Of a stretch of 64,000 bases of DNA, positions 26,501 to 63,583 are shown piece after piece. The DNA lies in assembly GCF_055900595.2 (NCBI RefSeq), contig NZ_CM148325.1; one strand, written 5' to 3'. The translations under genes and the position numbers were made by a program. Under the pieces are notes generated by a model. It worked only from the letters and a program-made list of their open reading frames with translations. It did no database searches and was not told the origin of the DNA. How positions within the stretch are numbered: position 1 is the stretch's first letter; every line of letters starts with the position of its first letter.

Positions 26501-27560
26501 CTTTCCCACTGACCAGCACCGCCTGATTGCCTTCGCCTAATGTCTGGGCGTCGGCGGTCGGCACCTGCACGCTCCACGCGCCGTTAGCGCCTACGCTGGT
26601 GGTGTAAGTTTTGCCGTTTAGCGTGACGGTGAGTTCCGTTCCCTGTGCCAGATGGCTACTGGTGCCAGAAAGGGTAAACCCGGCGGCCTGTTCGCTGGCG
26701 TTAATGATGTTATCGCCTGCGGTGGTGGCGAGCTGTACGGCGGCCTGACTATTGTCGATGGTTAACGTTATCGACCCGGCGTTGGTAATGGTGCTGCCGA
26801 CGATTTGCACCACTGACCAGGTATGTTCGCCCGCGCTTTGTGTGGGCAAATCGACGCTCCAGCGTCCATCGCTACCGACCTGGGTACTGGCGATGGTGTC
26901 ACCATTGCTGTCTTTAATCTGGATGGTCGCCCCCGCCTGTCCGCTGCCGCTAAAGGTTGGCGTAGTGTCATCGGTGATATCGTTGGCGGAAAGAATACCG
27001 CGTTGATCGCCCTGATTATCGGTTACCAAAAACGATGGAGTGGCATTGCCGGGTTCGGCTGGCGGAGGGTTGTTAACCACTTCAGTTTTTGAGTCATCAT
27101 CACCACCGCTTGCCAGTAAAGCGCCAAGCGCGCCACCACCTACCGCGGCACCCGCTAACCATCCCCACGGGAAGGCACTGGTCTGAGCGACGGTATCAAG
27201 ATACGGCGCAATGCTTTCAATTGCGGTAGTCTGAGCGGTCAGCTCCACGGGCGCTAATCCACCCGCCGCGGTATCGGCAAAGGTGACATGAGTCAGCTGT
27301 TGCCCATCGGCAAACACCAGTTCGGATTGCTCGCTGGTATTTGCCGCTTGCAGGAAATAACCATTACAGCGGATCACCGTGCCGTCCTGCATATAAATCA
27401 GCAGATCGTTTCCATCGCGCACATAACGCGCAACGGCAGAGGCCTGAGCATGAACCTGCACCACGGAGGGCTCATAAATGACAACCGTAACGTCGCCAGG
27501 ATTAATCAGCGTTTGTTTGACGGATGTTTTTCGCGAAATAACATCAATAATCAGGCTCAT
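8583..27560 (-). CDS. giant T1SS-secreted adhesin (6,325 aa): LapA-like N-terminal module, ~45-50 Ig-like repeats, FG-GAP-like calcium-binding repeats, RTX-type GG repeats and C-terminal secretion signal
   Basis: single 18,978-nt ORF; ~100-aa repeats each with the ...INT(V/I)AGDD(I/V)INAAE... core; DFDGDGDMD / DWDHDGLMD / DYDWDGAVD motifs; GGNDTLNIGNGGHDTL near C-terminus; flanked by T1SS genes. Confidence 0.9.
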   Translation of the reverse strand: MSLIIDVISRKTSVKQTLINPGDVTVVIYEPSVVQVHAQASAVARYVRDGNDLLIYMQDGTVIRCNGYFLQAANTSEQSELVFADGQQLTHVTFADTAAGGLAPVELTAQTTAIESIAPYLDTVAQTSAFPWGWLAGAAVGGGALGALLASGGDDDSKTEVVNNPPPAEPGNATPSFLVTDNQGDQRGILSANDITDDTTPTFSGSGQAGATIQIKDSNGDTIASTQVGSDGRWSVDLPTQSAGEHTWSVVQIVGSTITNAGSITLTIDNSQAAVQLATTAGDNIINASEQAAGFTLSGTSSHLAQGTELTVTLNGKTYTTSVGANGAWSVQVPTADAQTLGEGNQAVLVSGKDATGNTVTGAQLLTVDTQPPTLAINTIAQDNIVSASEHNASLVVSGTSNAEAGQTVTLTVNGKSHTATVGSDGTWQVTLPAAEVQALADGDYAINASVSDRAGNTTSNSVNFTVDTGAPVVSVNTVAGDDILNTAEQIVAQIISGRVSGASPGDTVTVKLGATVLSGVVQADGSWNVALDPAVTRTLARGPNDIIVTVTDAAGNTGTATHNITLAGVAPQVAIDAISGDNVLNALESQQPLTLSGTSNLPDGGTVSVTLNNVTYSAQVSGGVWSLSVPVSDVVNLANTNYTVTASATDVTGNTGTAQSNLLVDTVLPQVIINTFAGDNIVNNAEAGADQTLSGVVVGAAQGDTVTIELGGNTYTATVGSNLTWSVNVPAADLQALGDGALTINASVTTVHGNTGSSALDITISAGLPGLRIDTIAGDDVINAVEQQQNLIITGSSTNLSAGRVVTVLLGGNTYQGVTDSNGNWQVGVPAADLQALTPGTIVVNASATDPAGNPVTIDRNVEVNPGAVLITINTVSGDDIINAAEKGAPLTLTGTTQLVETGQTVVVKFAGQTFTTTVQAGGGWSLTVPASAVSSQADGATEITATVTNISGNTGDTSRTITVDSLAPALSIDSLTADNIINAAESGQDLQITGTTDAQPGQTVTVTLNGQTYQGVVQSVGSWSVTVPAANVGALADGNATVTASVNDVAGNPTSVSRVALVDATPPVVTINPVATDNVINTPEHTQAQIISGTVTGAQAGDIVTVTLNDVDYTTVVDASGNWSLGVPASVVSGLVDGSYPINVSVTDRAGNTGSQSLTVTVDTAAPVIGINTIAGDDVINASEKGADVQITGTSDQPVNTAITVTLNGQNYTTTTDASGNWSVTVPASAVTALGQANYTVTAAVTSDIGNSATASHNVLVDSALPGVTINPVATDDIINAAEAGAAQTISGQVTGAAVGDTVTVTLGGNTYSTTVQAGLSWSVSVPAADIQALGNGDLTVSASVTNQNGNTGSGTRDITIDANLPGLRVDTVAGDDVVNIIEHGQALVVTGSSSGLAEGTPLTVTINNVEYTTAVQVDGSWSVGVTAAQVSAWPAGTVSIAVSGESSAGNPVSITHPVTVDLTPAAITINTIATDDVINAAEKGADLTLSGTTTNVEPGQTVTVNFGGKNYTASVASDGSWTATVPAADLAALPEGSASAQASVSNINGNSASAVHNYSVDSSAPTIIINTVASDNIVNASEADAGVTVSGSTTAEAGQIVTVTLNSPTVQTYQATVQADGSWSITIPAADLEALTDGSHTLTATVNDKAGNPASTTHNLAVDLTVPVLTINTIAGDDIINAAEHGQALVISGSSTGGEAGDIVSVTLNNKTYTTTLDASGNWSVGVPAADVSALGSGPQTVTATVTDVAGNSDNETHTVTVNLTAPTIGINPIASDDVINATEKGADLQISGTSNQPTGTTITVTLNGQNYSATTDAAGNWSTTVPASAVGALGDASYTVTANVTDSAGNSNSASHNVQVNTALPGVTINPVATDDIINAAESGVAQTISGQVTGAAAGDTVTVAIGGKTYTATVQGNFSWSVDVPAADIQAIGNGELTVNASVTNGVGNTGSGSRDIVIDANLPGLRVDTVAGDDVVNSIEHAQALVITGSSSGLAAGAALTVVINTVTYAATVLADGTWSVGVPAADVGNWPAGTVDITVSGTNTAGTTSTITHPVTVDLAAVAISINTVSGDDVINAAEKGAELTLSGSTSGVEAGQTVTVTFGGKTYIATVAGDGSWTTTLPTADLSALRDGDATVQASVSNINGNTASATHAYSVDATAPTLAINTIATDDILNAAEAGNPLTISGTSTAEAGQTVTVTLNGVAYIGTVQAGGSWSVSVPTADLSNLTASPYTVSASVSDKAGNPATATHGLAVDLTVPVLTINTVSGDDIINAAEHGQALVISGSSTGGEAGDVITITLNSKTYTTTLDASGNWSVGVPAADVTALGSGPQTITAAITDAAGNSDDASRTVTVNLTSPTIGINTIATDDVINATEKGADLQITGTSNQPAGTTITVTLNGQNYTATTDSSGNWSATVPASAASALGEANYTVTASVTDTAGNSNSVSHNVLVNSALPGVTINAVATDDIINAAEAGSVQTISGQVTGAAAGDTVTVTLGGNTYTATVQANLSWSVSVPAADIQALGNGDLTVNASVTNVVGNSGSGSRDITIDANLPGLRVDTVAGDDVINSIEHNQALVITGSSTGLTAGTALTVVINNVTYAATVLADGTWNLGVPAADVSNWPAGTVDITVSGTNSAGTTSTITHPVTVDLAAVAITINTLSGDDVINAVEKGETLVVSGSTSGVEAGQTVTVTFGGKNYTTTVEANGSWTVNVPPADLAALPDGAGNVQASVSNINGNSAQADRAYSVDATAPLVTINTIASDDILNVSEAGAGITISGTTTAQAGQTLTVTLNNNTYQTTVQADGTWSVNVPATDLSGLTASSYTVTATVSDKAGNPASADHALAVDVTAPDLTINTVAGDDIINAIEHGQALVVSGTSTGAAAGDVVTVNLNGKNYTTTLDASGNWSVGIPAADVTALATGSQTITASLSDRAGNSDSTTHDVTVDLSGPTLTINTVSGDDIINNTEKTQDLIISGVSSGLAAGTTVTVMLNGLAYSATTDGSGNWSVTVPASAVGALGEAVYQISASATDSAGNNGSTTHTVNVESLLPGVIINTVAGDDIINAAEIAVNQTLSGQVTGTAAAGDSVTVTLGGNQYIATVQPDLSWSVSVPAADLQALGNSELTISASVTNSANNTGTATHDIVIDANLPGLRVDTVAGDDVINSIEYTQALVVTGSSTGLAAGAALTVVINSVTYGATVLADGTWSVGVPAADVANWPTGTVNIAVSGTNTAGTTTSISHPVTVNLAAVAITINTLSTDDVINAAEKGTDLQLSGTTSGVEAGQTITVIFGGKSYTTTVAADNTWGLTIPAADLATLPDGAANIQASVSNVAGNNAQATHVYSVDATAPSVTINTIASDDILNAAEAGSALTISGTSTAEAGQTVTVTLNGINYSGNVQADGSWSVSVPTGDLADLTASPYTVSAAVSDKAGNPTSATHNLTVDLAAPVVTINTVAGDDIINATEHAQAQIISGSATGATTGNTVSVTIGTTTYTTVLDANGNWSIGVPASVISALAQGDVTITATVTDSAGNSGTASHTVSVALGAPILAINTIAVDDIINATEKGADLSISGTSNQPAGTQVTVTLNGQNYTTTADASGNWSVTVPASAVGTLGEATYTVTAAATDVDGNSGSASHNVQVNTALPGVTINVVATDDIINAAEAGATQTISGQVTRAAAGDTVTVTLGGATYTATVQADLSWSVDVPASALQALGNGELSISASVTNSVGNTGNGTREITIDANLPGLRVDTVAGDDVVNIIEHGQALVITGSSSGLAVGSNVTLTINGQTYVAAVLADGTWSVGVPAVDVSAWPAGAVTITASGSTTAGNSVSVTHPVTVDLSAVAVSINAITTDDVINAAEKGAALTLSGSTSGVEAGQTVTVTFGGKTYTASVAANGSWSTTVPAADMAALRDGDASAQASVSNVNGNSATTTHAYSVDATAPTVTINTIAGDDILNAAEAGAALTITGSSTAEAGQTVTVTLNGANYTGTVQTDGSWSISVPPADLSALTASNYTVSAAVSDKAGNPTSVNHNLTVDTSVPVVTINTVAGDDVINATEHAQAQIISGSATGAATGNTVTVTIGTNTFTTVLDASGNWSVGVPASVVSALANGTVTINASVTDAAGNSGNASHQVTVNTGLPTITFNAISSDNVLNADEKGQPLTISGSSTGLATGAQVTVTLNGHNYSATTDAAGNWTLTVPVSDLAALGQANYTVSASATSAAGNTASSQANLLVDSGLPGVTINTVADDDIINAAEAGADQTISGGVTRAAAGDTVTVTLGGNTYTATVQGNLSWSVSVPAADLQALGNGDLTITASVTNANGNTGSGTRDITIDANLPGLRVDTVAGDDIVNSIEHGQALVITGGSSGLNAGAVLTVTINSVAYSTTVQADGSWSVGIPAANVSAWPAGALTVDVTGQSSAGNPVSVSHPFTVDLTAVAISINTVASDDVINAAEAGSALTLSGTGTNFAAGTVVTVLLNGKGYSATIQSNGSWSVNVPAADVAALADGTSYTVSASAQDSAGNSATASRSVAVDLTAPIISINTVSTDDRLNAAEQQQPLTLNGSTSAEVGQTVTVTFGGKTYTATVAANGTWALNVPAADLASLGQGAQTITASVNDRAGNPGQTTHALTVDTVAPTVTIATVAGDDIINNAEQLAGQTISGTTTAEAGQTVSVTFNGQNWTATVGSGGSWSVFIPAQQFAGLSDGSYTISATVSDQAGNPGSASRGVTLNGDVPTVTINTLAGDDVVNAAEHGASLVISGTTTAPVGQTLTLTLNGKTYTTTVQTGGSWSYTLGSADVTALADGNAYVINASVSNAIGNIGSSNHTITVDLSAPAMGINIDSLQADTGLSASDFITSVSPVVVNGSLTAALASNETAQISIDGGVTWSTLTVTGTTWRYNDSRTLTDGNYLYQVRVIDAAGNVGATDSQNVVIDTTAPDPAVKTIAISAITTDTGLITNDFVTSDTTLAVSGTLGSALSAGEFAQISIDGGTTWQNLAVNGLTWTYLDGRTLTDGNYNYQVRVIDTAGNIGATASQIVTVDTTAPLASKTIVIAGISDDTGLSSSDFVTRDTTLTVRGTLGAALAADERAQISLDGGVTWATLTVIGTSWSYADGRTLTDGTWNYTVRVVDLAGNVGQTATQNVVVDTISPEAAKSITITGISDDTGASSSDFITSDTTLTVRGVLGAALGANEFAQISTDNGATWVNVTVAADGLNWTYVDGRTLTNGTTTWQVRVVDLAGNVGATGSQSAQIDTVNPAQVLTIASISTDTGSSATDFITSDTTLTLTGSLGAGLASGEVAQISLDGGATWTTLTTNGTQWTYTDSRTLTDGSYVYQVRVLDLAGNTGPVVSKTVVVDTINPTATPTIVSYTDDVGQRQGTFSNSQATDDTTPLLNGVLSAPLASGEVVYLYRNGLLLGAVTMVGALNWTYSDSGLVSGAYTYSARVVDLAGNITSSSDFVLTVDTSIPTTLAQITNQTTRDTTPIISGVLTAALASGQYVEVVINGKTYTSQPGGAVVVDPAHNTWYVQLPDTDALAASATAYNVTAQVKSSAGNGNTANVSTGTVTVNAAIDYTPTWTTTSKSTAWGLTYGLDNHGMWTVLANQQIMQSTDPLTWSKTALTLVQSGNNYATSSIADYNRNGTGDLFITRDDYGTGYINGFTNNGDGTFSSAIQVNVGTLTWYGSIVAFDKEGDGYLDFWIGDAGGPDSNTFLWNNAGTLTGNSTTANNGGSATVGGAVTGYLSLNEGSGVDLNNDGRIDLVQHTFNLNNNFTLSSLISQGNGTFVWGQNTVNTFLSSPGSGGNSTSVSMTWADFDGDGDMDLFLPASQGRANYGSLLFNTNGVLGSPVAVGATATTYASQFSLAVDWDHDGLMDIARIAQTGQSYLYTNVSNASNWTQSALGGSQSGTTSGVAAMDYDWDGAVDVLVTKQSGSVFLIRNTNTVSYGTSLHLRITDPNGINVYYGNTVKLYNSAGVLVATQIINPQSGMGVNDTSALVNFYGLNAGETYNAVLIKSTGTTASNIDQTVNTSWGGLQATDATHAYDLSAEAGTASNNGKFVGTGYNDTFFATAGTDTYDGSGGWVYSSGTGTWLANGGMDVVDFRLSTVGVTANLSVTTAQATGFNTSTFTNIEGISGSNFNDTLTGSSGDNQLEGRGGNDTLNIGNGGHDTLLYKLLNASDAAGGNGSDVVNGFTVGTWEGTADTDRIDIRELLQGSGYTGNGKASYVNGVATLDAQAGNIGDFVKVTQSGSDTIVQIDRDGTGGGFATTNMVTLTGVHTDLATLLANHQLMVV

Positions 27561-31868: not shown

Positions 31869-32882
31869 CTACCTCCCTTTTTCCTCAAAATGTGGACACT
31901 CAATGGACATATCACATAGCGGATTATGCATCACAGCATCGCTTAAATAATCCGGCGAAAAATGCGCATAAGTCATTGTCTGAGATATATCTGCATGACC
32001 GAGGATTTTTTGAAGAGAAATAATATTCCCCCCATTCATCATAAAATGGGTGGCAAATGTATGCCTCAATACATGAACCGCTTGACCGTCCGGCAAATTA
32101 GGCTTAGCCACCTTCAGTTTCAGCCTAAACCATTTATAACTCACCCGAAATAAACGCCCCTCCTTGCGATGTTTTACAAGCCTAACAACATCATCAGAAA
32201 CAGGAACAACCCGACGCTTATTATTTTTTGTGAAATTAAATACAACCTTATTACCGATAATATGTTCCCCCATTAGCTGATATGCTTCATTCCAGCGACA
32301 GCCTGTAGACAACAAAAGGACAGCCATTCGGTAATAATCTCCCGAACCCTTGCAGATAGAAAGAAACGCACCAATCTCTTCATGATTAAGATAAGCCATC
32401 TCTGGGGTTTTTTCCTTGAGGCGAGGAAGCGACAATACAGGGTTACTACCGTGATATTCACCAATCTCTGCCATAGCCTTTAACGCAGCGCTAAACGCAA
32501 AAAGATCATGGTTGATTGTAGATGCCTTAACCCCTTGATCGAGACGGCGCGATCTATATTCAGCAACCATGCGTTCATCAATCTCGTACATCATAGGGTC
32601 ACCCATATCAAGACAAATACACTGGAGGTTATTCAGTCTACGATTCGCGTAATCCTTGTGACGACCTATCAGTAACCACCACGTCGCAATGAAATCGCTT
32701 AAATATCGCTTGTCCAGAAGATTACCGAAAACATCAACAGAAGGGCGATCAGCAAGAACTTCGCGTTCAAATGCTACAGCCAGATTTTTTTTCTCAAACT
32801 TCCGACGAATGCGCCTTCCCTTACTTCCGTCGGGTCGAATGTCCACAAAATAGCGACCATCTTCGAGCTTCTTAATTGACAT
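31869..32882 (-). CDS. int: P2-family tyrosine integrase
   Basis: MSIKKLEDGRYFVDIRP... close to P2 Int N-terminus; C-terminal R..H..R..Y catalytic region (HVLRHTFATH, MTYAHF); ORF track start 32912 probably too far upstream. Confidence 0.9.
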   Translation of the reverse strand: MSIKKLEDGRYFVDIRPDGSKGRRIRRKFEKKNLAVAFEREVLADRPSVDVFGNLLDKRYLSDFIATWWLLIGRHKDYANRRLNNLQCICLDMGDPMMYEIDERMVAEYRSRRLDQGVKASTINHDLFAFSAALKAMAEIGEYHGSNPVLSLPRLKEKTPEMAYLNHEEIGAFLSICKGSGDYYRMAVLLLSTGCRWNEAYQLMGEHIIGNKVVFNFTKNNKRRVVPVSDDVVRLVKHRKEGRLFRVSYKWFRLKLKVAKPNLPDGQAVHVLRHTFATHFMMNGGNIISLQKILGHADISQTMTYAHFSPDYLSDAVMHNPLCDMSIECPHFEEKGR

Positions 32883-32951
32883 AAGAAGACCCTCCAACAG
32901 TCCATTCTCCATCTTGAAAACAGATAGAGAAAACGTATTCCTTATAAAGAG

Positions 32952-53843: not shown

Positions 53844-54740
53844 ATGCCTTCCGTTGACCTGTCACAGTTACCGGAACCGGCCATCATCGCGCAGCCGGAT
53901 TTTGAGTCCATCCTGGCAGACATTAAAACCATGATGGTGAGCTCCTTCCCGGAAGAATACCGCGCCGCCGTCACCCGTGCCCTTACTCTGGAATCCGAGC
54001 CATTGAACATCATTTCCCAGGCCATGGCCTTTCGTGAAATGCTGCTTCGCCAGCGCATCAATGAAGCCGCCCGCGCCTGCATGCTCAGCCACAGCCGGGG
54101 CAGTGACCTGGACAATCTGGCTGCCAACAACAACACCCGCCGCCTGGTCATTCATCCGGCCACTGATACCACGGAAGCAGTGATGGAAAGCGACACATCG
54201 CTGCGTCTGCGTGCCCAGTCAGCCTGGGACGGCCTGAGTGTGGCCGGACCGTCCGGCGCGTATGAGTATTTTGCCCGGAGCGCAAGCGGTCTTGTCCGTG
54301 ATGCGCGCGCCATCAGCCCGTCACCGGCCACAGTCACCGTCTCCATCCTGTCAGCAGACGGTGACGGCACCGCCGGTGAGGCGTTACTGAACACGGTGCG
54401 CACCGCCCTGAATGCCGAGAACGTGCGCCCGGTTGCCGACCGCCTGACTGTGCAGAGTGCTACCATCGTGAACTGGGAAATGGAAGCGAAGCTGTATTTT
54501 TATCCAGGGCCGGAGTCTGAACCCATGCTTGCGGCCGCTGACGCCGCTTTCCGTGCATGGCTGGCAGACCAGGGCCGTATCGGTCAGGATGTGGCCCTGT
54601 CAGCCATCACTGCAGCGCTGCATGTTCACGGTGTCCAGCGCGTTGAGGTCATAAAACCCACGCAGAACATCACCATCAGTGACACTCAGGCAGCCAGATG
54701 TACCACATTCAGCATCAGCGAAGGAGGACGCAATGAGTGA
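53844..54740 (+). CDS. J: baseplate protein J
   Basis: 298 aa at the J position. Confidence 0.85.
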   Translation: MPSVDLSQLPEPAIIAQPDFESILADIKTMMVSSFPEEYRAAVTRALTLESEPLNIISQAMAFREMLLRQRINEAARACMLSHSRGSDLDNLAANNNTRRLVIHPATDTTEAVMESDTSLRLRAQSAWDGLSVAGPSGAYEYFARSASGLVRDARAISPSPATVTVSILSADGDGTAGEALLNTVRTALNAENVRPVADRLTVQSATIVNWEMEAKLYFYPGPESEPMLAAADAAFRAWLADQGRIGQDVALSAITAALHVHGVQRVEVIKPTQNITISDTQAARCTTFSISEGGRNE

Positions 54741-55461
54741 CAGGAAAAAAACAGACAGCGCACAGCACAGTACATCACTGCTTCCACCGTCCGCAGGGCC
54801 ATTCATGCGCGCCACAGAGGCGACAGGAGTACGCATCAGTACCATACCGGTGGACGCCGACACCCTGTGGTCGCCGGACCGCTGCCCTGCTCACCTCCTG
54901 CCCTACCTTGCATGGGCATGTTCCGTTGACCGCTGGGACCGCAACTGGCCGGAAGAGACCAGACGACAGGTGATTGGCCAGTCCTGGAAGGTACACCGCC
55001 AGAAAGGAACGGTCAGCGCACTGAGGGAAACAGCCGCAGCATTCGGTTATGAGATGACCATCAGTGAATGGTGGGAGCATGGAGGGCAGCCGGGCACCTT
55101 TACTGTGACCATCGGGGCAGACACTCAGGGCATCGGCCCTGAAACATGGCTGGAGATGGAGGATCTGCTCAATGATGCACGTCCGGTTTCACGTCATATG
55201 ACGGGGCTTTATGCCGCCCTGCGTTCTGGCGTGACGGTTTACTGCGCTGCGGGAGCAGGCTGTGATGAGCTTGTAACCATTCACCAGAAAGCTCGCGCCT
55301 CCCTGGCGGGCCAGGTGACCATCATCGCAGCAGGAGACACACACACAACCGACAGTGTGACCGTACTGCCGGGGGTTCCGTCAGGTATGTACGGGGAGAT
55401 CTGTATCCGTACCGGCGCAGGTATATTCGTGAGTGAGATTGTGGAGGTTATCACCTTATGA
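54733..55461 (+). CDS. I: baseplate/tail protein I
   Basis: start MSDRKKTD with RBS aaggagg, overlapping J stop. Confidence 0.8.
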   Translation: MSDRKKTDSAQHSTSLLPPSAGPFMRATEATGVRISTIPVDADTLWSPDRCPAHLLPYLAWACSVDRWDRNWPEETRRQVIGQSWKVHRQKGTVSALRETAAAFGYEMTISEWWEHGGQPGTFTVTIGADTQGIGPETWLEMEDLLNDARPVSRHMTGLYAALRSGVTVYCAAGAGCDELVTIHQKARASLAGQVTIIAAGDTHTTDSVTVLPGVPSGMYGEICIRTGAGIFVSEIVEVITL

Positions 55462-56573
55462 ACACCGATTTTTATTCCGTTCTGACGGATGCCGGGCTGA
55501 AAAAACTGGCGGCAGCCGCAGCATCAGGGAATCAGATGAAAATCACCCATATGGCTGTAGGCGACGGAAACGGAAAAGCCGTAACACCCGGCAGGGCCGA
55601 CACCAGGCTTGTCAGGGAAAAATACCGTGCGCCACTGAACAGTCTGGAAGAAGACACAGAGAGACCGGGGCATGTTATCGCAGAAATGGTGATACCTGAA
55701 AAACAGGGAGGGTGGTGGATCAGAGAATTCGGATTATTCGACGAAGACGGCGGAATGATTGTTACAGGCAAATTTCCTGACACATGGAAGCCTGCACCTG
55801 GTCAGGGTGGAGCACGACTGATATCAGTGAAAGTGGTTGTGGCAGTATCACATACAGAAAACATTGTGCTGAAAGTGGATCCTTCTGTTGTCATGGCAAC
55901 CCGGGAATGGGTGAACACAAAAGCAGAGCAGTTAAAGAAAGAGCTCAGACAACCTGATGCAACCACCAAAACAAAAGGCATTGTTCAGCTTAGCAGTGAC
56001 ATCAACAGCACCTCTGAAACGCAGGCTGCCACCCCCGGAGCGGTAAAAGCCGTGAATGATCGTGTGGACGGAAAACAGGACGCGGATCCCACGCTCACAT
56101 CTCTGTCCGGGAAAAATGCACAGCAACTGAGGCAGCTTCTGGGGCTGGGCACGCTTGCCACCCTGAACAGGGGCACCGGTTCAGGGAATGTGCCGGACAT
56201 GAGTCACTTTGCGAGTAAAAAAGCAGACTACGGTTACCAGTGTTTTCCTGGCGGCATAATGATCCAGTGGCTGCGGATCCCCTCAGACCACACAGAAAGA
56301 GCTGTCAGTCAGGAAGCCCGGGTGGCACTAAGCGGCGTGCGACTGTTTTCAGTGGAGGGTAACTGGAACGGTAATAACATGATTAAGACCCTGGCAAACT
56401 ACCAGTGGCCGAGAGTTTTCGGGGCAATTTATGCGACCGTTGCAACCAGGAATCACGGATCTGCATGGCGAGTATATCCGGTGTCCGCGAACAAGGATGT
56501 GCGTGTCGTATCCATTGCCTGGGCGGGAGAAGGTACAGATGACACTTATGTGGTTGGGGTGGGAAGAGTATGA
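55458..56573 (+). CDS. H: tail fibre protein (gpH-like conserved N-terminus, short divergent C-terminal receptor-binding region)
   Basis: N-terminus MNTDFYSVLTDAGLKKLAAAAASGN..ITHMAVGDGNG resembles P2 H; 371 aa versus ~670 in P2. Confidence 0.8.
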   Translation: MNTDFYSVLTDAGLKKLAAAAASGNQMKITHMAVGDGNGKAVTPGRADTRLVREKYRAPLNSLEEDTERPGHVIAEMVIPEKQGGWWIREFGLFDEDGGMIVTGKFPDTWKPAPGQGGARLISVKVVVAVSHTENIVLKVDPSVVMATREWVNTKAEQLKKELRQPDATTKTKGIVQLSSDINSTSETQAATPGAVKAVNDRVDGKQDADPTLTSLSGKNAQQLRQLLGLGTLATLNRGTGSGNVPDMSHFASKKADYGYQCFPGGIMIQWLRIPSDHTERAVSQEARVALSGVRLFSVEGNWNGNNMIKTLANYQWPRVFGAIYATVATRNHGSAWRVYPVSANKDVRVVSIAWAGEGTDDTYVVGVGRV

Positions 56574-57016
56574 AAATGATGTGGTCGCCGTCTGTGGGCG
56601 GTTTTTTTGGTGAAGACAGCAGCCATATACCGGAAGATGCGGTGGAGGTTGATGAATCGATGTGGAGCAGGATGATGGAGGGACAACTTGAGGGAAAAAT
56701 TATCGTTAACGGCCCTGACGACCTGCCTGTTCTGGAAGAGCGTCCGGGACCGGGGCCAGAAGAATACCGGCATCAGGCTCGCCTTGAGCTTGCTGACCTT
56801 CGCCGACAGGGGCTGGAACACATAGAGTCGATGCGCTGGCGTGACAAAGCGGTCATGAACAGGCTGGGAGAAGAGGAGAAGCAGGAGTATAACGCCTGGC
56901 TTGACTGGCTCGACGCGCTTGACAGTACGGACATATCAGGGGCACCGGATGTGGTGTGGCCGGTGATGCCCGTCACGGTGGTTCCTGAACATCCTCAGAA
57001 AAAATTGCCGGAGTGA
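56570..57016 (+). CDS. tail fibre assembly chaperone (Tfa/gpG-like)
   Basis: C-terminal ...YNAWLDWLDALD...VVWPVMP resembles the conserved Tfa C-terminus. Confidence 0.65.
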   Translation: MKMMWSPSVGGFFGEDSSHIPEDAVEVDESMWSRMMEGQLEGKIIVNGPDDLPVLEERPGPGPEEYRHQARLELADLRRQGLEHIESMRWRDKAVMNRLGEEEKQEYNAWLDWLDALDSTDISGAPDVVWPVMPVTVVPEHPQKKLPE

Positions 57017-57057: not shown

Positions 57058-57504
57058 TTATCTGCCAGCATTGCGGATGATACCCGAAAGCATATCAGAC
57101 ACCGACGGCATCATTCGCTCCCGCAAATCCTCATCACAGCGTTCCATACTGACAGTGAACTCAATTTTTTTGGCCTTACCGTGGCGGTCAAGTTCGCTTC
57201 GCGTTGTGCGGACAGCCGTTATCACATACATGCCGTATATCTGCCCCACACCGTCAATCAGCGGCCATGGGCGGCCAGTGTAAGCCTGCGTCGTTAAAAG
57301 GCTGAGGGAAACCTCACCGCCGGTAATTTCGGGATAAAGCACACCGGACAACGTGATCTGGTCGTCACCCGCCCCGATATACTGCCAGCTGGCCGAACGA
57401 TTGATGCGTTCATTTTTAACGTGGCGCCAGGTTTTATTATGTTGCAGTTGTTGATGAGGCAGCGTGCGCAACTCAAAAACAAACATGCCGTAAATCATCA
57501 TCAT
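57058..57504 (-). CDS. U: tail protein U
   Basis: 148 aa; MMMIYGMFVFELRTLPHQ...ITLSGVLYPEITGG...GRPWPLIDGVGQIYGMYVI resembles P2 U. Confidence 0.85.
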   Translation of the reverse strand: MMMIYGMFVFELRTLPHQQLQHNKTWRHVKNERINRSASWQYIGAGDDQITLSGVLYPEITGGEVSLSLLTTQAYTGRPWPLIDGVGQIYGMYVITAVRTTRSELDRHGKAKKIEFTVSMERCDEDLRERMMPSVSDMLSGIIRNAGR

Positions 57505-57515
57505 GCGAGGTACTC

Positions 57516-60500
57516 CTAATCTCTGTCACGGAAACTACCGACTGTCTGGCGGATACGGCGTTCCATTTCCGCACGGACGGCATCACCCACCATTTTTGCC
57601 AGTTCGCGCGGGTTTTGCGTGTGAACATCATGCAGGTGAATATGCAGTTCGCCAGTTAATCCCCATGGTGCCGGATCACTCTGACGCGGTCGGGGCGATG
57701 CGGGGGATATGGGCTGGCGCACAGCCTCAACCACCGGACGGGATGTTGCCGTTACGACGGGTGTCATTACCGGCGCAATATTGCCGGACACTACCGGTTT
57801 AATTACCGGGGAGAGCGTCGGTATAACATCGCCAGCCATAACCGGTTTGATCGCTGGCGAAATAACCGGAGCAACAGACTCAGCCATGACGGAACTGACA
57901 GGCTGAGGCGCTCTCACTATGCCAGCATCGATAACCAGCATGAGCTCGCGTACTGCCTCAAGGACAGGACGGGATATTGCCGCCATCACTGGTGTCATTA
58001 GCGGGGAGAACGTCGGCATGACATCGTGAGTCATAACCGGTTTGATCACCGGCGAAACCACCGGCGTAATATTACCGGACAGTACCGGACGGACGACCGG
58101 AGGAATAACCGGCACATTATTCACGGACACCACCGGCTTCACGACCGGCGACACGTTCGCCGTGGTGGATATCAGCGGCGAAACACTGACAGGCGGTGGC
58201 GCTGGCAGCGGTGGCAACGAAGGCACACTGACCGACGGCACCTGCGGCAGTCTGACAGGTGGCTCACTGACACTACCCGGTAACAGGGAAGCTGCGCGGT
58301 TAAAGCGTTCCTCCTTCCACTCACCACGAACGGCCAGCGCTTCCGGCAGGTTTTTAAAGATAATATCGCCGGGACCAGTGCGTTTTTTCGCCTGTTTCGC
58401 CTCATCCAGCAGGCCACCGGTGTTATCGACGATTTTATTCAGGCGACGCATGGTGCCGGTATTCTCCCCCGTCAGCGGAGCAGTTGCTGCAGGTGCAGGT
58501 ACTGGCGGCTTTTTGTCTTTGTCATTTTGCGGCGGATTAATGACATTAACATCCGCCAGGAGCATGGCGGCTTTCTCGTTCAGCAGCTCCTTCTGCTTCA
58601 GCTCTTCCGCCTTTTTCCGGGCGCGCTCAACCGCCGACGGAATCAGCCCGAGTTTTTCCAGCACCCGGGTTAATGAGTCAATCAGCAGCGTAACCGGACC
58701 GGTCACCAGATTGCTGATAAACTCCCCGACCTTCTGCCCGAACGTCCGCCCGGCTTCCGTGCACTTGTCCAGCTCATCCTTTGTTGTGCTTACCGGCGCG
58801 AACAAATCCACGAACCACTGCCACACACGCCCGATTGTCTGCCCGACATACTCAAACAATGGTCCCAGTGGTGCCACAGCCTCGCGCAGTGGCGTAAGCC
58901 CCTGCCACAGGCCGGACAAGAACCCGCCCACGACAGCCTTCAGCTGGTCCCAGTGCCGCCAGATAAGCACTGCCGCACCGACCAGTGTCGCCACCACAAG
59001 GCCCACCGGACTTAACAGAAAACCCAGCGCCCCGCCAAGTGCGCCCACCGCACCACTCACCATCCCCCACAGTGCGGGCAGACCTGACAGTCTGAGCGCC
59101 AGTATTCCGATACCGCGCCCCAGTGAAATCAGTGCGCCGCCAGGTGAAGTGAACGCAGCCAGCAGACCACCACGCAGCGCGCCAAGTCCCGCCTGCACAC
59201 CACGAAGCCGCCCCGCAACTACGCCCAGCAGTGCAGCAAACCGTCCGGCACCGGAGGTGATACCGACAAACAGCACGCGCCAGCCACCGATACCGCCCAG
59301 CGGACCACCGAGTACGCCGCGCAGCTGCGTCAGTAACGGCAGCGCACGACCGAGGCCGGATGTGCCGGTCAGCAGGGCAAACCCAAGACGCAGTTTTGCC
59401 AGCGGCCCCATCAACACACCAGTGGCAAGTGACAGCGCCCCCATGGCCGCAACCGCAGCCAGCAGTGCACCACCGGCAATCAGCAGTTGTTTTGTCAGTT
59501 CAGGGTGCGCCTGGGCCAGCGCGGTGACTTTCGCAATAACCCGGGTGAACGACTGCGTGACAGAACGCAGCGGCCCGTCAACGAGGTCAGCGACACGGAT
59601 ACGCAGCCCTTCCCATGCGCTGTTCAGTGATTTCAGGTCGCCGTCCAGGTTGTCCGCCATGATTCTGGCGTTTTCTTCCAGTTCGCCGTTCGCTGCCTGA
59701 ATCTCACGCGTCAGGCGCGGCAGGTTTTTTTCGCCTGCCTGTTCAACCAGGCTCATCAGGGAGACATACGCCTCCTGCCCGGCAATATCTGAAAAGAACG
59801 AGACTTTTGCCGCGTTACCGTATTTACGGGTGGCCTGATACAGCTCATACAGGATATCTTCCATCGGGCGCATGTTCCCGTAAGCATCCTGCGTTTCCAC
59901 GCCCAGCTGTTTCAGCGCCTTTGCTGCCGCTTTAGGCGGGTTCACAAGGCGGGACAGACTGGAGCGCAGCGCCGTACCAGCATCACTGCCACGTATCCCC
60001 ATCGACCCAAGCAACCCGGTCATGGCTGCGGTCTGTTCAAGAGACAGACCGAGTGAGGCGGCGACCGGTCCCGTATATTTCATCGTCTCACCAAGCCCGC
60101 GCAGGTCGGTATTGGTGCGGGTGAACGTTGCGGCCAGCGTGTCACCCACGCGGTTCATCTGGTCGGCAGACAACCCGAACTGCGTAAGGATATTTGAGCT
60201 GATATCGGCCGTCTGACCGAGGTCCATGCCGCTGGCCGTTGCCAGATTCAGCACGCCGGGAAGAGCCGCCTGTATCGCCTGCGGCGTGAACCCCGCCATG
60301 GCAAGGAACGCCTGACCGCTGGCAGCATCACCTGCGGTAAACTGCGTTTCGGAGCCGAGTTTAAGCGCCTGTTCGCGCAGCGCCTTAAACTGCGGACTGT
60401 TTTTGTCAATACGGGTCAGCGCCTGGACGCGCGACATCTCCTTACCAAAACTGACCGCCGGTTGCAGGAAACGCCCGGCCGCATAGCCACCTGCCGCTGC

Positions 60501-61094
60501 CGTGCCGACTGCCGTAAATCCACCCGCTTTCAGTTTTCCCGCCATCTCCTGAGCGCGGAAATATTGCTGGCGTGCCTGCGTGACGCGTGCCAGAGTCTGC
60601 CGTTCACGTTCCAGCTGTTCGTTGTATTGCTGTGTTCGCCGTATGGCCTGTTGAATGGTGTTGTCACTGCCGGAAAGCGCAATACCGTGACGCCGCAGCT
60701 CACCACCCAGTTCGCGCATTCGCTGAACTTCACGCGCACGGACCTCATTGAGACGCTCAAGTTTGAGGCTCAAATCGTTCATCAGCTTTTTCTGTTTGTC
60801 AGACAGCACGGTTCCGGCGCGCTGAATTTGCTGAAGTGCGCTTAACTGGCGTTGTGCCCGGGCAATGCCGTTTCCGGCCTTGTTTGCAGCCTCGCGGGCG
60901 CGATCAAATGAACGGGCGTGGCGTTCCAGGTTTTTGATCGCACCCTGCGTTCTCTGTATGGAGTCGCCAAGCTGGCCCATCATGCGACGGGCGTTTTCGG
61001 TGGGACGGGTCAGCCTGTCAACAGCGCTGAAGGCGACCCGTATATCAAGCGTTTTCATGCTCTGCGTTCCCGCTGCGAAGGGCCGCCCGCTCAC
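57516..61094 (-). CDS. T: tail tape measure protein (gpT-like, 1,192 aa, with Pro/Val-rich tandem repeats near the C-terminus)
   Basis: long helical protein with a transmembrane-like glycine-rich central region; located between E and U. Confidence 0.85.
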   Translation of the reverse strand: MSGRPFAAGTQSMKTLDIRVAFSAVDRLTRPTENARRMMGQLGDSIQRTQGAIKNLERHARSFDRAREAANKAGNGIARAQRQLSALQQIQRAGTVLSDKQKKLMNDLSLKLERLNEVRAREVQRMRELGGELRRHGIALSGSDNTIQQAIRRTQQYNEQLERERQTLARVTQARQQYFRAQEMAGKLKAGGFTAVGTAAAGGYAAGRFLQPAVSFGKEMSRVQALTRIDKNSPQFKALREQALKLGSETQFTAGDAASGQAFLAMAGFTPQAIQAALPGVLNLATASGMDLGQTADISSNILTQFGLSADQMNRVGDTLAATFTRTNTDLRGLGETMKYTGPVAASLGLSLEQTAAMTGLLGSMGIRGSDAGTALRSSLSRLVNPPKAAAKALKQLGVETQDAYGNMRPMEDILYELYQATRKYGNAAKVSFFSDIAGQEAYVSLMSLVEQAGEKNLPRLTREIQAANGELEENARIMADNLDGDLKSLNSAWEGLRIRVADLVDGPLRSVTQSFTRVIAKVTALAQAHPELTKQLLIAGGALLAAVAAMGALSLATGVLMGPLAKLRLGFALLTGTSGLGRALPLLTQLRGVLGGPLGGIGGWRVLFVGITSGAGRFAALLGVVAGRLRGVQAGLGALRGGLLAAFTSPGGALISLGRGIGILALRLSGLPALWGMVSGAVGALGGALGFLLSPVGLVVATLVGAAVLIWRHWDQLKAVVGGFLSGLWQGLTPLREAVAPLGPLFEYVGQTIGRVWQWFVDLFAPVSTTKDELDKCTEAGRTFGQKVGEFISNLVTGPVTLLIDSLTRVLEKLGLIPSAVERARKKAEELKQKELLNEKAAMLLADVNVINPPQNDKDKKPPVPAPAATAPLTGENTGTMRRLNKIVDNTGGLLDEAKQAKKRTGPGDIIFKNLPEALAVRGEWKEERFNRAASLLPGSVSEPPVRLPQVPSVSVPSLPPLPAPPPVSVSPLISTTANVSPVVKPVVSVNNVPVIPPVVRPVLSGNITPVVSPVIKPVMTHDVMPTFSPLMTPVMAAISRPVLEAVRELMLVIDAGIVRAPQPVSSVMAESVAPVISPAIKPVMAGDVIPTLSPVIKPVVSGNIAPVMTPVVTATSRPVVEAVRQPISPASPRPRQSDPAPWGLTGELHIHLHDVHTQNPRELAKMVGDAVRAEMERRIRQTVGSFRDRD

Positions 61095-61571
61095 GCCAGG
61101 CGACCACCTCGCCGGGATCCATCAGGAAGATTTCAGCGGGAGACCAGTTGAAAATAACGGCGATATCCGCCACAAAGTCTTCAATATGCTCAAAGGGCAC
61201 GACGGTTATCAGCCTGCCGTCGCCGCCACGCTCTTCCCGCCAGAGTCCTGACCGGCCAAAAAATTAACCGCCACCCCGCACAGCTGAATAAAATCAGCGG
61301 ACCCCATGCGCTTAAGCAGAACCTCGTCCAGTCGCGGCGAAGTGACGCGCGGGAGTAACTCAAACATCGCGTCCGTTTTCATGTTCAGCACGTCAAGCAG
61401 TGACAGCCCGCGCAGTGAACCGGCCTGCTGTACAGCAGGCGTGATTTCCACATACGTGATTTTTTTGTTACCGAGCACAAGGGGCGTTTTCAGCGTCACG
61501 CCGCGCTCACTGGTCACGTCCGCCGCATCAGCACCGTCAGTAACAGGGGCAACAACCGGATTTTCTTTCAT
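61045..61571 (-). other. predicted E+E' product made by -1 programmed frameshift at TTTTTTG (61257-61263), extending to a TGA at 61045 and overlapping the T start
   Basis: hand translation of the -1 frame after the slippery heptamer gives ~70 more codons. Confidence 0.5.
61209..61571 (-). CDS. E: tail assembly chaperone E
   Basis: 120-aa ORF between FII and T containing a T6G slippery site near its 3' end. Confidence 0.8.
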   Translation of the reverse strand: MKENPVVAPVTDGADAADVTSERGVTLKTPLVLGNKKITYVEITPAVQQAGSLRGLSLLDVLNMKTDAMFELLPRVTSPRLDEVLLKRMGSADFIQLCGVAVNFLAGQDSGGKSVAATAG

Positions 61572-61621: not shown

Positions 61622-62140
61622 TTAACCACCAAGACCAATCGCCGAGCGCACGCGGTCCGGGAAGACGCTTTTGCCGTCCTTGCGTTCGATGTGGTTCAGT
61701 AAATCAATCTCCAGCACCGGACGGTCGTTAATGCTGAGTTTGTAGTAGGTACTTTTGACCGCATAGGTGTGAGACGTGACCTCACCCTGTTTGGCCTCCC
61801 CGGTATCAATTTCCGTCACGCGACCGCGAAGCTCAATCTCGTACAGGTCACTCTGTTCTTCATCGTTGTAGTACTCACCGACAAAGCGCAGCAGCGTACC
61901 GTCAATCGTTCCGCCGTACTTGAGGAACAGTTCGCGGGTCGGCCCGCCCATGGTGAAACTCGCATCCAGCGCGCCGTCATCCAGGCCAAGGTCGATATTT
62001 ACTGCACCGGCCATACCACCACCGCGATAGGCTTCCGTTTTACGGGTCAGTTTGGGGGCCGTGAAGCCGGTCACTCTGCCAATCTGGTTCACCCCGTCAG
62101 TAAACAGCGTGAACACCCTGAGATTTTTTGGTACGGCCAT
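61622..62140 (-). CDS. FII: tail tube protein FII
   Basis: 172 aa, position after the sheath gene. Confidence 0.9.
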   Translation of the reverse strand: MAVPKNLRVFTLFTDGVNQIGRVTGFTAPKLTRKTEAYRGGGMAGAVNIDLGLDDGALDASFTMGGPTRELFLKYGGTIDGTLLRFVGEYYNDEEQSDLYEIELRGRVTEIDTGEAKQGEVTSHTYAVKSTYYKLSINDRPVLEIDLLNHIERKDGKSVFPDRVRSAIGLGG

Positions 62141-63423
62141 TAAGCACCTCCAAGCGTCGCAAATGCAGGACCAAAGAATTCATCAGTAAACGTCTGGTAA
62201 AGTTCCATATCCTCAAGCGGCGGAACGGGCGTGTACTTGTAGCGGATACGCACGCGTCCCTGACGAAGTTCCGTGGTGCTGTTATCCACCACGTCATACC
62301 AGCACTCCGCACCAACGAGACGTCCTGACGTAACCAGCGCATCCAGTTTTGCGCGAATTGCGCTTAACACGTCTTTCACATTAGCAGGGGTCAGCGGGGC
62401 ATCAATCGTTTCAAACTGCGCTTCCGCAACAGAATCAGCCAGCACCTGAGCGGTTCGCGTGTACACCTCAAAGATATACGCCTTCGTTTCCGGCGTACGG
62501 TTGCCCCAGAAGCGGAAACCGTTACGGCGAATGATGGTGGTGATTTCCTTGTTGTTGAGATTGTTGGCATCGCTGTCTTCGGACTGAAGGGACCAGAACA
62601 CCGGGCTGGAAATACCCAGCACATTTCTTACCGGCACGTTGGACAGCGATTTATGCCAGCCCTGTTCGTGGTCAATACGTGCACGTAAACCGCAGGCGTA
62701 CGCCGCAGCCGGGAAGACCTCATTAGCGCCGGATTTCGGGTTATGGGCGATGAAGTCAGGCCAGAGCAGCATAAGTTCGCGCTCGTTAAATCTGGCGCGG
62801 TAGCTGATTGCATCAGCGGGCTTCTTGCAGTTGTGACAGCCCGCGTAGACAAATGCGCGAAGTTTTTCTGCAATTACACACAGGGATTTTGTGACAGCTT
62901 CAGTATCCAGTCCGGGCGCTGCGATGATGCGCGGACGGTAACCGATGGCATCATCCTGTTCAGCTATCAGAAGTGCATACATACCGGTATAATTACCGTC
63001 GTCATCCGTGCCACCAATGACATACTGGTCCTGCGTTTTGTGTGGGTATACAGGATGTGCATCTTCAGACTCATCAATACCAAAAAATGCCCTGTCTTCA
63101 GGATCCAGATGACCGAATGATGTAACTCCTGTATCCGGGGCGCCCTGAGAACTGGCATCAGGAACGCGCACCACAATCACCTTCGTGCTCACCTGGTCGG
63201 CGACAGCCTTAAGTGAACGGTACAGCGTGCCCTTTGTGCCGGTCTTACCCAGCACATCACTGACGCGGGTCAGCAGTATGGGTTTGTTCAGCGGGAACAG
63301 AGTTTCATCCGCGTCATCTGCCGTAGCCACAATACCAATAACACTGGAATCCACATCATTAATGGCGGTGGTAAGGCCGGTACTTTCCCTTACGCGCGCA
63401 CCATGAAAGCGTGTTTCACTCAT
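62140..63423 (-). CDS. FI: contractile tail sheath protein FI
   Basis: strong similarity to P2 FI (KLRAF, IDHEQGWHKSLSNV, RRNGFRFWGNRT, YKYTPVPPLE); likely start MSETRF at 63423. Confidence 0.9.
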   Translation of the reverse strand: MSETRFHGARVRESTGLTTAINDVDSSVIGIVATADDADETLFPLNKPILLTRVSDVLGKTGTKGTLYRSLKAVADQVSTKVIVVRVPDASSQGAPDTGVTSFGHLDPEDRAFFGIDESEDAHPVYPHKTQDQYVIGGTDDDGNYTGMYALLIAEQDDAIGYRPRIIAAPGLDTEAVTKSLCVIAEKLRAFVYAGCHNCKKPADAISYRARFNERELMLLWPDFIAHNPKSGANEVFPAAAYACGLRARIDHEQGWHKSLSNVPVRNVLGISSPVFWSLQSEDSDANNLNNKEITTIIRRNGFRFWGNRTPETKAYIFEVYTRTAQVLADSVAEAQFETIDAPLTPANVKDVLSAIRAKLDALVTSGRLVGAECWYDVVDNSTTELRQGRVRIRYKYTPVPPLEDMELYQTFTDEFFGPAFATLGGA

Positions 63424-63583
63424 ATGTTTCACCCTTGTCTGGCTGGTTGATTTTGCGTAATCATTACCCACGATGCCGCCGGTATCATCTCCTGCCCGTT
63501 CTCACCGTTCGCTTACAACAAACAGCCGTTCACCACGGTCGCACGCCGTGAAAACATGACGGGACACACCACGAGGGCAGACC

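Follow-up and report, generated by a model that had tools for sequence, protein, structure and literature searches.

A hierarchical proline- and valine-rich tandem repeat of variable unit number near the C-terminus of a P88-like prophage tape measure protein

We analysed a 64,000-nucleotide (nt) stretch of DNA from NCBI RefSeq assembly GCF_055900595.2 (contig NZ_CM148325.1; hereafter the window), the minus strand of which carries gene T of a P88-like prophage of Escherichia coli. Gene T encodes a phage tail tape measure protein of the P2 gpT/PF10145 type. Near its C-terminus this protein contains a tandem repeat rich in proline and valine that is restricted to one prophage lineage and that varies between Escherichia coli genomes from one to three large units. 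Our preferred explanation, to which we assign a probability of about 55%, is that the repeat is a lineage-specific expansion that serves as a recombination-prone, non-helical spacer in the tube lumen and adds to the ruler.

57516..61058, minus strand: tape measure gene T, 1,180 amino acids (aa) from its ATG (open reading frame (ORF) listing and translation, PF10145, phrog_28)

Architecture of the repeat

Residue numbers are those of a 1,192-aa ORF counted from a GTG upstream of this ATG. Valine accounts for 22% and proline for 19% of residues 949-1131 (window positions 57700-58250), compared with 8.5% and 6.5% of the whole protein. Self-comparison of the protein gave its best diagonals at offsets of 65 aa (PVVSPVIKPVMTHDV against PVISPAIKPVMAGDV) and 77 aa (MTPVMAAISRPVLEA against MTPVVTATSRPVVEA). 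The DNA contains direct repeats of 116 nt (72% identity, spacing 195) and 65 nt (78% identity, spacing 231). The Smith-Waterman score between the two halves was 162, against 42 ± 7 in composition-preserving shuffles (z = 16), and the local self-score of the DNA was 35, against 8.9 ± 1.2 in codon shuffles (z = 21). A first-pass annotation of this DNA had proposed a Pro/Val-rich internal duplication, to be checked by comparing T with itself, and the self-comparison found it. The repeated accgg units described there are also present: ACCGG, the complement of the Pro-Val codons CCG GTn, occurs 15 times in 57700-58250 (27 per kilobase) versus 2.8 per kilobase in the rest of the gene.

The repeat is hierarchical. 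Proline autocorrelation peaks wherever the lag is a multiple of four residues (z = 3-7), and prolines are depleted at other lags, reflecting tetrads of the pattern x-P-V-hydrophobic. Lag 16 is the strongest peak and marks a 16-aa (48-nt) super-period, which is also the spacing of three families of direct repeats (D2, D4 and D5); lag 11 is at background. Above the tetrads and the 16-aa super-units stand two large units offset by 65/77 aa. The region contains a single aromatic residue, and the mean hydropathy of the repeat segment is about +0.7-0.8. Tandem Repeats Finder reported only 12-nt micro-repeats and missed the large array, because its copies are about 75% identical with an indel. The parts of the C-terminal region, from the N-terminal side, are as follows.

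58317..58376, minus strand: conserved upstream anchor GPGDIIFKNLPEALAVRGEW, residues 907-926 (invariant alignment columns)
58170..58283, minus strand: Pro-rich linker LPGSVSEPPVRLPQVPSVSVPSLPPLPAPPPVSVSPLI, residues 938-975, absent from P88 (translation and alignment)
57975..58154, minus strand: first run of x-P-V-hydrophobic tetrads, residues 981-1040, in super-units of about 13-16 aa (proline autocorrelation)
57876..58070, minus strand: unit A ITPVVSPVIKPVMTHDVMPTFSPLMTPVMAAISRPVLEAVRELMLVIDAGIVRAPQPVSSVMAES, residues 1009-1073, 65 aa (self-comparison)
57714..57875, minus strand: unit B VAPVISPAIKPVMAGDVIPTLSPVIKPVVSGNIAPVMTPVVTATSRPVVEAVRQ, residues 1074-1127, 54 aa
57519..57671, minus strand: conserved C-terminal end, residues 1142-1192, with a GELHIHLH motif and a predicted terminal helix (invariant columns)

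The core line of unit A reads ...SPVIKPVMTHDVMPTFSPLMTPVMAAISRPVLEAVR... and that of unit B ...SPAIKPVMAGDVIPTLSPVIKPVVSGNIAPVMTPVVTATSRPVVEAVR; their identity over 42 aligned codons is 79% at the DNA level and 67% at the protein level. The earlier description of two units of about 75 aa was therefore right as to their number, but as partitioned here they are unequal, at 65 and 54 aa. The C-terminal end is also kept in P88 and in phages phiT5282H (Enterobacter) and Kp4845-1 (Klebsiella).

Alleles with one, two or three units

We aligned four alleles, those of the window (identical to that of strain GF60) and of the DG341-1, F374 and Br_112_kylling types. The allele of DG341-1 has one unit, encodes 1,103 aa and aligns with a clean 77-aa gap. 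Those of the window, GF60 and F374 have two units and encode 1,180 or 1,173 aa, and that of Br_112_kylling has three and encodes 1,238 aa, 65 of them extra. All length differences among the four are multiples of 3. The third unit of Br_112_kylling is a 195-nt tandem duplication, and it is recent, because its copies are 100% identical; the duplicated 65-aa period is phase-shifted by a few residues from our partition of unit A. The one-unit allele is a hybrid: left of a GGCAA that both units share it matches unit A, and right of it unit B, the signature of recombination between diverged units.

The repeat is present in 27 of 5,426 complete E. coli genomes, 17 with one unit, eight with two, one with three and one with a frameshifted one-unit allele, so that the frame is kept in 26 of the 27. 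A short region of the P88 type was found in about 1,390 of the same 5,426 genomes. The comparison with T of related prophages that had been suggested earlier thus gave a unit number of one, two or three in some and the short P88-type region elsewhere.

Gene T is under purifying selection. Between the window and DG341-1, the ratio of nonsynonymous to synonymous substitution rates (dN/dS) is 0.17 over the whole gene and 0.11 over the N-terminal 508 codons, with a range of 0.11-0.27 for the gene outside the repeat. The same pair of alleles (DG341-1 being locus L004) is mosaic. A dS of 0.41 in the N-terminal 508 codons, compared with about 0.01 from the hydrophobic region through the repeat to the C-terminus, implies recombination within T.

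About three-quarters of the 27 carriers with a stated source come from chicken or chicken meat, and several of the records represent the same strain. In several RefSeq E. coli genomes the Prokaryotic Genome Annotation Pipeline (PGAP) calls intact T ORFs pseudogenes ("incomplete; missing C-terminus"; locus L001 20037-21752 and loci L003, L004 and L005 1537-3312/3732) and leaves the repeat region unannotated. Many database copies of the protein are partial and apparently end at contig ends. These labels and partial copies are probably caused by the hydrophobic and repeat regions. The RefSeq pipeline thus labels intact tape measure genes as pseudogenes, and since the repeat also appears to break draft assemblies, functional prophages can look defective.

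Restriction to one prophage lineage

We searched GTDB, at one genome per species, with a pattern made of two conserved anchors that flank the region, including GPGDIIFKNLPEALAVRGEW. This recovered 31 related loci in species representatives, all but one titled as Enterobacterales, in genera that include Citrobacter, Klebsiella, Enterobacter, Kosakonia, Pantoea, Serratia, Erwinia and Edwardsiella. The distance from the GPGDI anchor to the C-terminus was 106-140 aa in all 31, versus 209, 286 or 351 aa in the repeat alleles. IMG/VR held only two loci with the repeat.

An exhaustive HMMER search of 1.84 billion representative proteins returned 26 matches, none homologous over the repeat; the weak matches P0054-P0064 were considered as relatives and rejected as unrelated low-complexity Pro-rich linkers. 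A word-indexed search for proteins similar to the C-terminal 288 aa yielded mainly incomplete sequences, and the repeat was present in only three clusters. Full-text literature searches found no description of a proline-rich repeat in tape measure proteins. The expansion is restricted to this prophage lineage.

For residues ~905-1192 we found no Pfam family at E ≤ 10 and no matching chain in a PDB sequence search; elsewhere in the protein, PDB entries 9g8s_w and 9m8o_M matched residues 19-604 and 630-720, respectively. The suggestion in the first-pass annotation that the extra length might bring an added C-terminal function found no domain support in these searches or in structure prediction, in which the repeat scored a predicted local distance difference test (pLDDT) value of about 30.

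Sources of the extra length

The window's tape measure protein has 1,180 aa, compared with 935 aa in P88 (YP_009113088) and 815 aa in P2 (NP_046782; NC_001895 19850..22297). The protein is much longer than that of P2, as had been noticed, and the value of about 815 aa stated for P2 was correct, but the length of 1,192 aa given for the window protein falls to 1,180 aa with its likely start. P2 is also an unsuitable yardstick, as the prophage is P88-like and the tape measures of P88-type relatives already have about 900-1,015 aa.

The 245 aa gained over P88 fall into two places, 87 aa in the hydrophobic core and about 158 aa in the Pro-rich linker and repeat.

58929..59534, minus strand: central hydrophobic region rich in Gly, Ala and Leu, residues 521-722, of which 87 aa are absent from P88 (alignment)

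This central region has a mean hydropathy of about +1 and a combined Gly, Ala and Leu content of 55-62%; phiT5282H and Kp4845-1 have a similarly long one. Of the 365 aa gained over P2, the Pro/Val region supplies about 170 aa. The remainder comes from the larger hydrophobic core and from the P88-type C-terminal module, which is common to all P88-like proteins and is extra relative to P2, so the repeat makes up a minority of this excess.

Among characterised phages the closest homologue is the P88 tape measure, at 67% aa identity. It shares the gene order FI-FII-E/E'-T-U with D divergent upstream, the anchors GPGDI.FKNLP.ALAVRGEW and GE.H.HLH and, at the position of the repeat, one copy of a seed motif, ITPVVP...PVVAASSRPVAEAIR. 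It lacks the Pro-rich linker and any expansion of the repeat, however, and measures 131 aa from anchor to end versus 286 aa in the window. P2 gpT belongs to the same family, occupies the same operon position and has a central hydrophobic region, with 31% identity over the first ~640 residues and 28% over the ~300 that follow (BLASTP alignments of 653 aa, E = 3e-86, and 315 aa, E = 3e-26, respectively). Beyond a "...LEKLG" motif it continues for only about 90 aa, whereas the window protein continues for about 390 aa, and it has no Pro/Val region.

Gene T and its prophage

The identification of T as a tape measure gene, already made in the first-pass annotation, was confirmed by Pfam, by phrog_28 ("tail length tape measure protein", E = 4.8e-186), by its position between gpE/E' and gpU and by its homology to P2 gpT. 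PF10145 scored 197.3 bits against a Pfam gathering threshold of 33.2 and covered profile positions 1-201 of 201. The open frame reaches a GTG at 61094 (57516..61094, minus strand, 1,192 aa). However, the ATG at 61058 (MKTLDIRV) is almost certainly the real start, as judged by comparison of sequences: it corresponds to the annotated start in P88, to the PGAP start in strain GF60 and to that of an identical protein in NCBI and UniRef, and for this reason we take the protein to have 1,180 aa. That database entry already bears the correct generic name "phage tail tape measure protein".

59778..60377, minus strand: PhageMin_Tail domain, residues 240-439 (Pfam PF10145, E = 3.3e-58)
62140-63471, minus strand: sheath gene of the P2-type tail operon
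61622-62140, minus strand: tube gene of the P2-type tail operon
61209..61571, minus strand: gpE-like tail assembly chaperone, 5' of T (phrog_103)
57058..57504, minus strand: gpU-like tail protein, directly 3' of T (PF06995, E = 6.7e-41)
31869-32912: phage integrase, upstream in the window along with a gpA replication gene

The tail operon on the minus strand has the order sheath, tube, gpE, T and gpU. An E' extension overlaps the start of T, and in GF60 PGAP annotates an overlapping "GpE family phage tail protein". Gene T is 100% identical to that of E. coli GF60 across the gene, and the PGAP annotation of this identical locus agrees with the operon order of the window. Whole-gene megablast found matches to T in 36 of the 5,426 complete E. 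coli genomes. A megablast of T against a phage collection returned no match, and tblastn was needed to detect P88; the best phage matches were then P88 and other Xuanwuvirus records, at 66-67% aa identity, and not P2. The gene maps of P88 and GF60 also match, with D and ogr divergent upstream of FI and an FI-U operon that converges on the fibre genes. By its T protein matches and its tail gene arrangement, the prophage is P88-like (Xuanwuvirus, Peduoviridae). Because the integrase and gpA genes are located there, it occupies approximately the last 32 kilobases of the window.

Conformation, position and predicted tail length

Using an alignment of 15 sequences, AlphaFold predicted the C-terminal 420 aa with a mean pLDDT of 42. 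The repeat was modelled as coil, with one low-confidence helix in the inter-unit segment SRPVLEAVRELMLVIDAG; the extreme C-terminus was modelled as a helix (pLDDT ~70-77), the sole such part of the C-terminal region. A continuous alpha-helix is excluded for the repeat because every fourth residue is proline. Together with the model, this suggests that the repeat is probably an extended, flexible, non-helical stretch.

Among contractile particles, only the diffocin has had its tape measure traced in full length: CD1366, an 817-aa protein that fills the lumen as a trimer and spans 1,388 Å, with C-terminal helices seated on the spike and N-termini that reach the collar (PMC10996793). CD1366 resembles the window protein in having a central region of predicted transmembrane helices, and it serves as our topological model. 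CD1366 differs in that almost the whole of it is alpha-helical (1.7 Å per residue) and in that it lacks a Pro-rich repeat. By analogy with its arrangement, the repeat of the window protein would occupy the lumen of the tube just above the baseplate and would count toward the measured length.

Tail length varies with tape measure length in other phages. In TP901-1, larger deletions in the tape measure give shorter tails, whether they remove repeat or hydrophobic sequence (PMC5099701). Among P2-like phages, KS14 combines a tape measure of 842 aa with a tail of 140 nm, KS5 one of 920 aa with 150 nm and KL3 one of 1,075 aa with 160 nm (PMC3091744), and pro147 and P88 have 815 and 935 aa and tails of 131 nm and 137-140 nm (PMC5285337). 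A regression over these five gave 0.098 nm per aa (r = 0.87), from which tails of approximately 162, 169 and 175 nm are predicted for the one-, two- and three-unit alleles. The calibration of helical rulers (0.15-0.17 nm per aa) would instead give 177-201 nm for the window protein. By analogy with these phages, the tail of the window prophage would measure approximately 165-200 nm, compared with 137-140 nm for P88. The longer tail predicted in the first-pass annotation is therefore a plausible expectation. We looked for tail lengths of further relatives, but the paper on Citrobacter phage phiSM reported no tail measurements, and a full-text literature search found no paper characterising phiT5282H or its tail.

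Origin and role of the repeat

In the explanation that we prefer, expansion would have taken place in a linker that is normally short and poorly conserved, near the C-terminus of the P88-type tape measure. An ancestral motif ("..ITPVVP..PVVAASSRPVAEAIR"), present singly in P88, may have been amplified stepwise, to x-P-V-hydrophobic tetrads, then to 16-aa super-units and then to the two 65/77-aa units. The DNA homology that resulted would allow unequal recombination or slippage to add or remove whole units in frame, and such gain and loss would produce the natural alleles with one, two and three units. With the C-terminal helix of the tape measure anchored on the spike and its N-terminus at the collar, the repeat would fall within the tube lumen and lengthen the span over which the tube polymerises, by ~6-12 nm (2-3 tube rings) per unit.

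Several points weigh against this explanation. P2-like phages gain only 0.05-0.13 nm of tail per aa, less than the 0.15 of helical rulers, so it seems that not every added residue counts, and with so shallow a slope the tail should gain no more than tens of nm. In P88, 120 aa added at the C-terminus relative to pro147 correspond to only ~6-10 nm (PMC5285337). The Pro-rich segment may fold back, stay compact or sit buried in the hub, and the effect of the repeat on tail length is purely something that we infer. As to selection, the alleles differ by 0-3 substitutions in the repeat region, so that dN/dS there is uninformative and gives no repeat-specific signal, and between units A and B dN/dS is 0.5 over 42 codons, which is only moderately low. 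Some carriers are also degraded. In strain 135 (L009) a frameshifting deletion in the Pro-rich linker (around positions 4216-4300 of the locus), with a matched span 10 nt shorter than in other one-unit alleles, splits the tape measure into two ORFs and makes a genuine pseudogene. In GF60 the sheath gene carries an IS21 element; the sheath gene of the window is intact.

These last points also suit the strongest of the competing explanations, in which slippage-prone sequence would have expanded in an unconstrained, tolerant linker between the two anchors, with a neutral or slightly deleterious effect and no consequence for function; the alleles may sit in partly defective prophages. Across relatives, no part of the C-terminal region is less conserved than this linker, the ratio of 0.5 between units would suit relaxed constraint, and no fold was predicted. 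The allele is rare (27 genomes and two IMG/VR contigs), and carriers show decay not only in the sheath gene of GF60 and the frameshift of strain 135 but also in a divergent gpI C-terminus. However, apart from the one frameshifted genome, the carriers keep the frame, with indels of whole units or multiples of 3, and the four-residue phase of proline has been maintained over ~150 residues although the units have diverged by 21-28% in DNA. Purifying selection acts on the rest of the gene, and residues added to an anchored, lumen-filling ruler are unlikely to be without physical consequence. We therefore consider neutral expansion unlikely, although it deserves to be taken seriously.

A more specific version of the spacer explanation is that the repeat is a natural tail-length "vernier", in which non-helical, proline-phased units at the baseplate end of a myophage ruler are changed by recombination. 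This is a tentative idea, and we think it rather improbable. If it were true, wild E. coli, chiefly poultry isolates, would harbour discrete tail-length variants of one prophage lineage (1,103, 1,180 and 1,238 aa), and their nm-per-residue calibration would differ from the canonical 0.15 nm of helical rulers. In a variant of the same idea, copy number would tune the reach of the ejected tape measure across the envelope.

It is also conceivable, though we doubt it, that the repeat is not part of the ruler at all and instead forms an ejected extension that spans the envelope, its copy number tuning reach and not tail length. The C-terminal end would exit the tube first, and the proline-broken repeat would then form an extended, protease-resistant stretch. 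Equally doubtful in detail, this stretch might bridge the periplasm or meet periplasmic chaperones and prolyl isomerases there, while the central hydrophobic region entered the inner membrane. The segment is hydrophobic yet unable to form transmembrane helices. Phage HK97, in work of Cumby et al. from 2015, is said to need both its tape measure and FkpA, a periplasmic chaperone and prolyl isomerase, for entry. The only weak similarities among the 1.84 billion proteins were Pro-rich repeat linkers, one of them with an LPKTG sortase motif and a repeat that probably spans the wall, which is an analogy and not homology. The repeat also lies near the C-terminal, baseplate-proximal end, if the diffocin topology applies (PMC10996793), and tape measures are thought to help form a conduit in the inner membrane (PMC9022992). 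On the other hand, the repeat is not needed for entry, because P88, phiT5282H, Kp4845-1 and the phages of the 31 loci infect similar Enterobacterales without it. About 150 extended residues would span ~45 nm, more than the periplasm. An envelope-spanning role is argued from analogy only, and it would be compatible with a simultaneous effect on the ruler.

The chance that the duplication is an artefact of assembly or sequencing is negligible: the repeat does confuse assemblers and annotators, as the partial database proteins and the "missing C-terminus" labels illustrate, but the two-unit structure is 99.7-100% identical in seven of eight independently finished carrier genomes and 99.3% identical in the eighth, units only ~75% identical could not be collapsed or expanded by mis-assembly, and the junctions in the one- and three-unit alleles are clean and preserve the frame.

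Comparison with other repeat systems

Variable tandem repeats are already known in tape measure proteins. Siphophage tape measures contain tandem repeats of 11/18 aa marked by aromatic residues (Belcaid et al. 2011, PMC3271669; for TP901-1, Mahony et al. 2016, PMC5099701). Like the repeat of the window, these are internal and tandem and vary in number between related phages, and they have been proposed as natural facilitators of duplication and deletion and hence of tail-length change (PMC3271669, PMC5099701). However, they are marked by Trp or Phe, predicted to be alpha-helical and located in the body of the ruler, whereas the window repeat has periods of 4, 16 and 65-77 aa, is Pro/Val-rich and predicted to be non-helical, and lies near the C-terminus of the tape measure of a P2-like myophage. 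We considered assigning it to the 11/18-aa class and rejected this: variation in repeat number, a property of that class, is found in the E. coli alleles, but lag 11 is at background, only one residue is aromatic and every fourth residue is proline. With its hierarchy and its polymorphism in unit number, the repeat is a modest, lineage-restricted elaboration of a well-known protein.

The Pro-rich repeats of Gram-positive surface proteins that span the cell wall also have a short proline period and form extended, rigid or semi-rigid spacers; weak, composition-driven similarity to proteins of this kind made up the only matches outside tape measures. They are not homologous, consist of PT, KP and EP dipeptides or PVADPVVK octads, and belong to the cell envelope and not to a virion. 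The X-Pro region of TonB is another short-period proline repeat, an extended, (semi-)rigid spacer of a cell-envelope protein.

The tape measure protein is the textbook example of a molecular ruler, and the length that it measures off is assumed to be helical throughout. Near-isogenic alleles that differ by whole non-helical units offer a ready-made test of whether such residues count in a contractile tail, and with what calibration.

Neighbouring genes

The sheath protein (62140-63423, minus strand) has 427 aa from its likely ATG; its counterpart in P88 has 394 aa and that in P2 has 396 aa. An insertion of 33 aa that follows about residue 90 (adjacent alignment gaps of 27 and 6 aa, ...DASSQGAPDTGVTSFGHLDPEDRAFFG...) accounts for the difference.

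A tail-fibre and assembly cassette (55458-57016) has been swapped, and two genes lie at its junctions. One is gpI (54733-55461, plus strand), with a divergent C-terminus about 60 aa longer than that of the strain 135 allele; PGAP calls the GF60 copy partial. The other is gpU (57058-57504, minus strand), which has a different end and is shorter by 14 aa than its counterpart in strains that carry the other fibre module.

Three antisense ORFs overlie T, at 58042-59700 (plus strand, 552 aa), 57503-57802 (plus strand) and 58026-58283 (plus strand). These are presumably by-products of the GC-rich codon usage of T.

Adjoining the prophage, 5245-29024 (minus strand) looks like the locus of a type I-secreted adhesin similar to BapA and SiiE. 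Its giant 6,325-aa ORF (8583-27560) combines a BapA_N prefix domain with FG-GAP repeats and numerous bacterial Ig-like domains, and the genes that flank it are of the HlyD, ABC-transporter and TolC-like (OEP) types.

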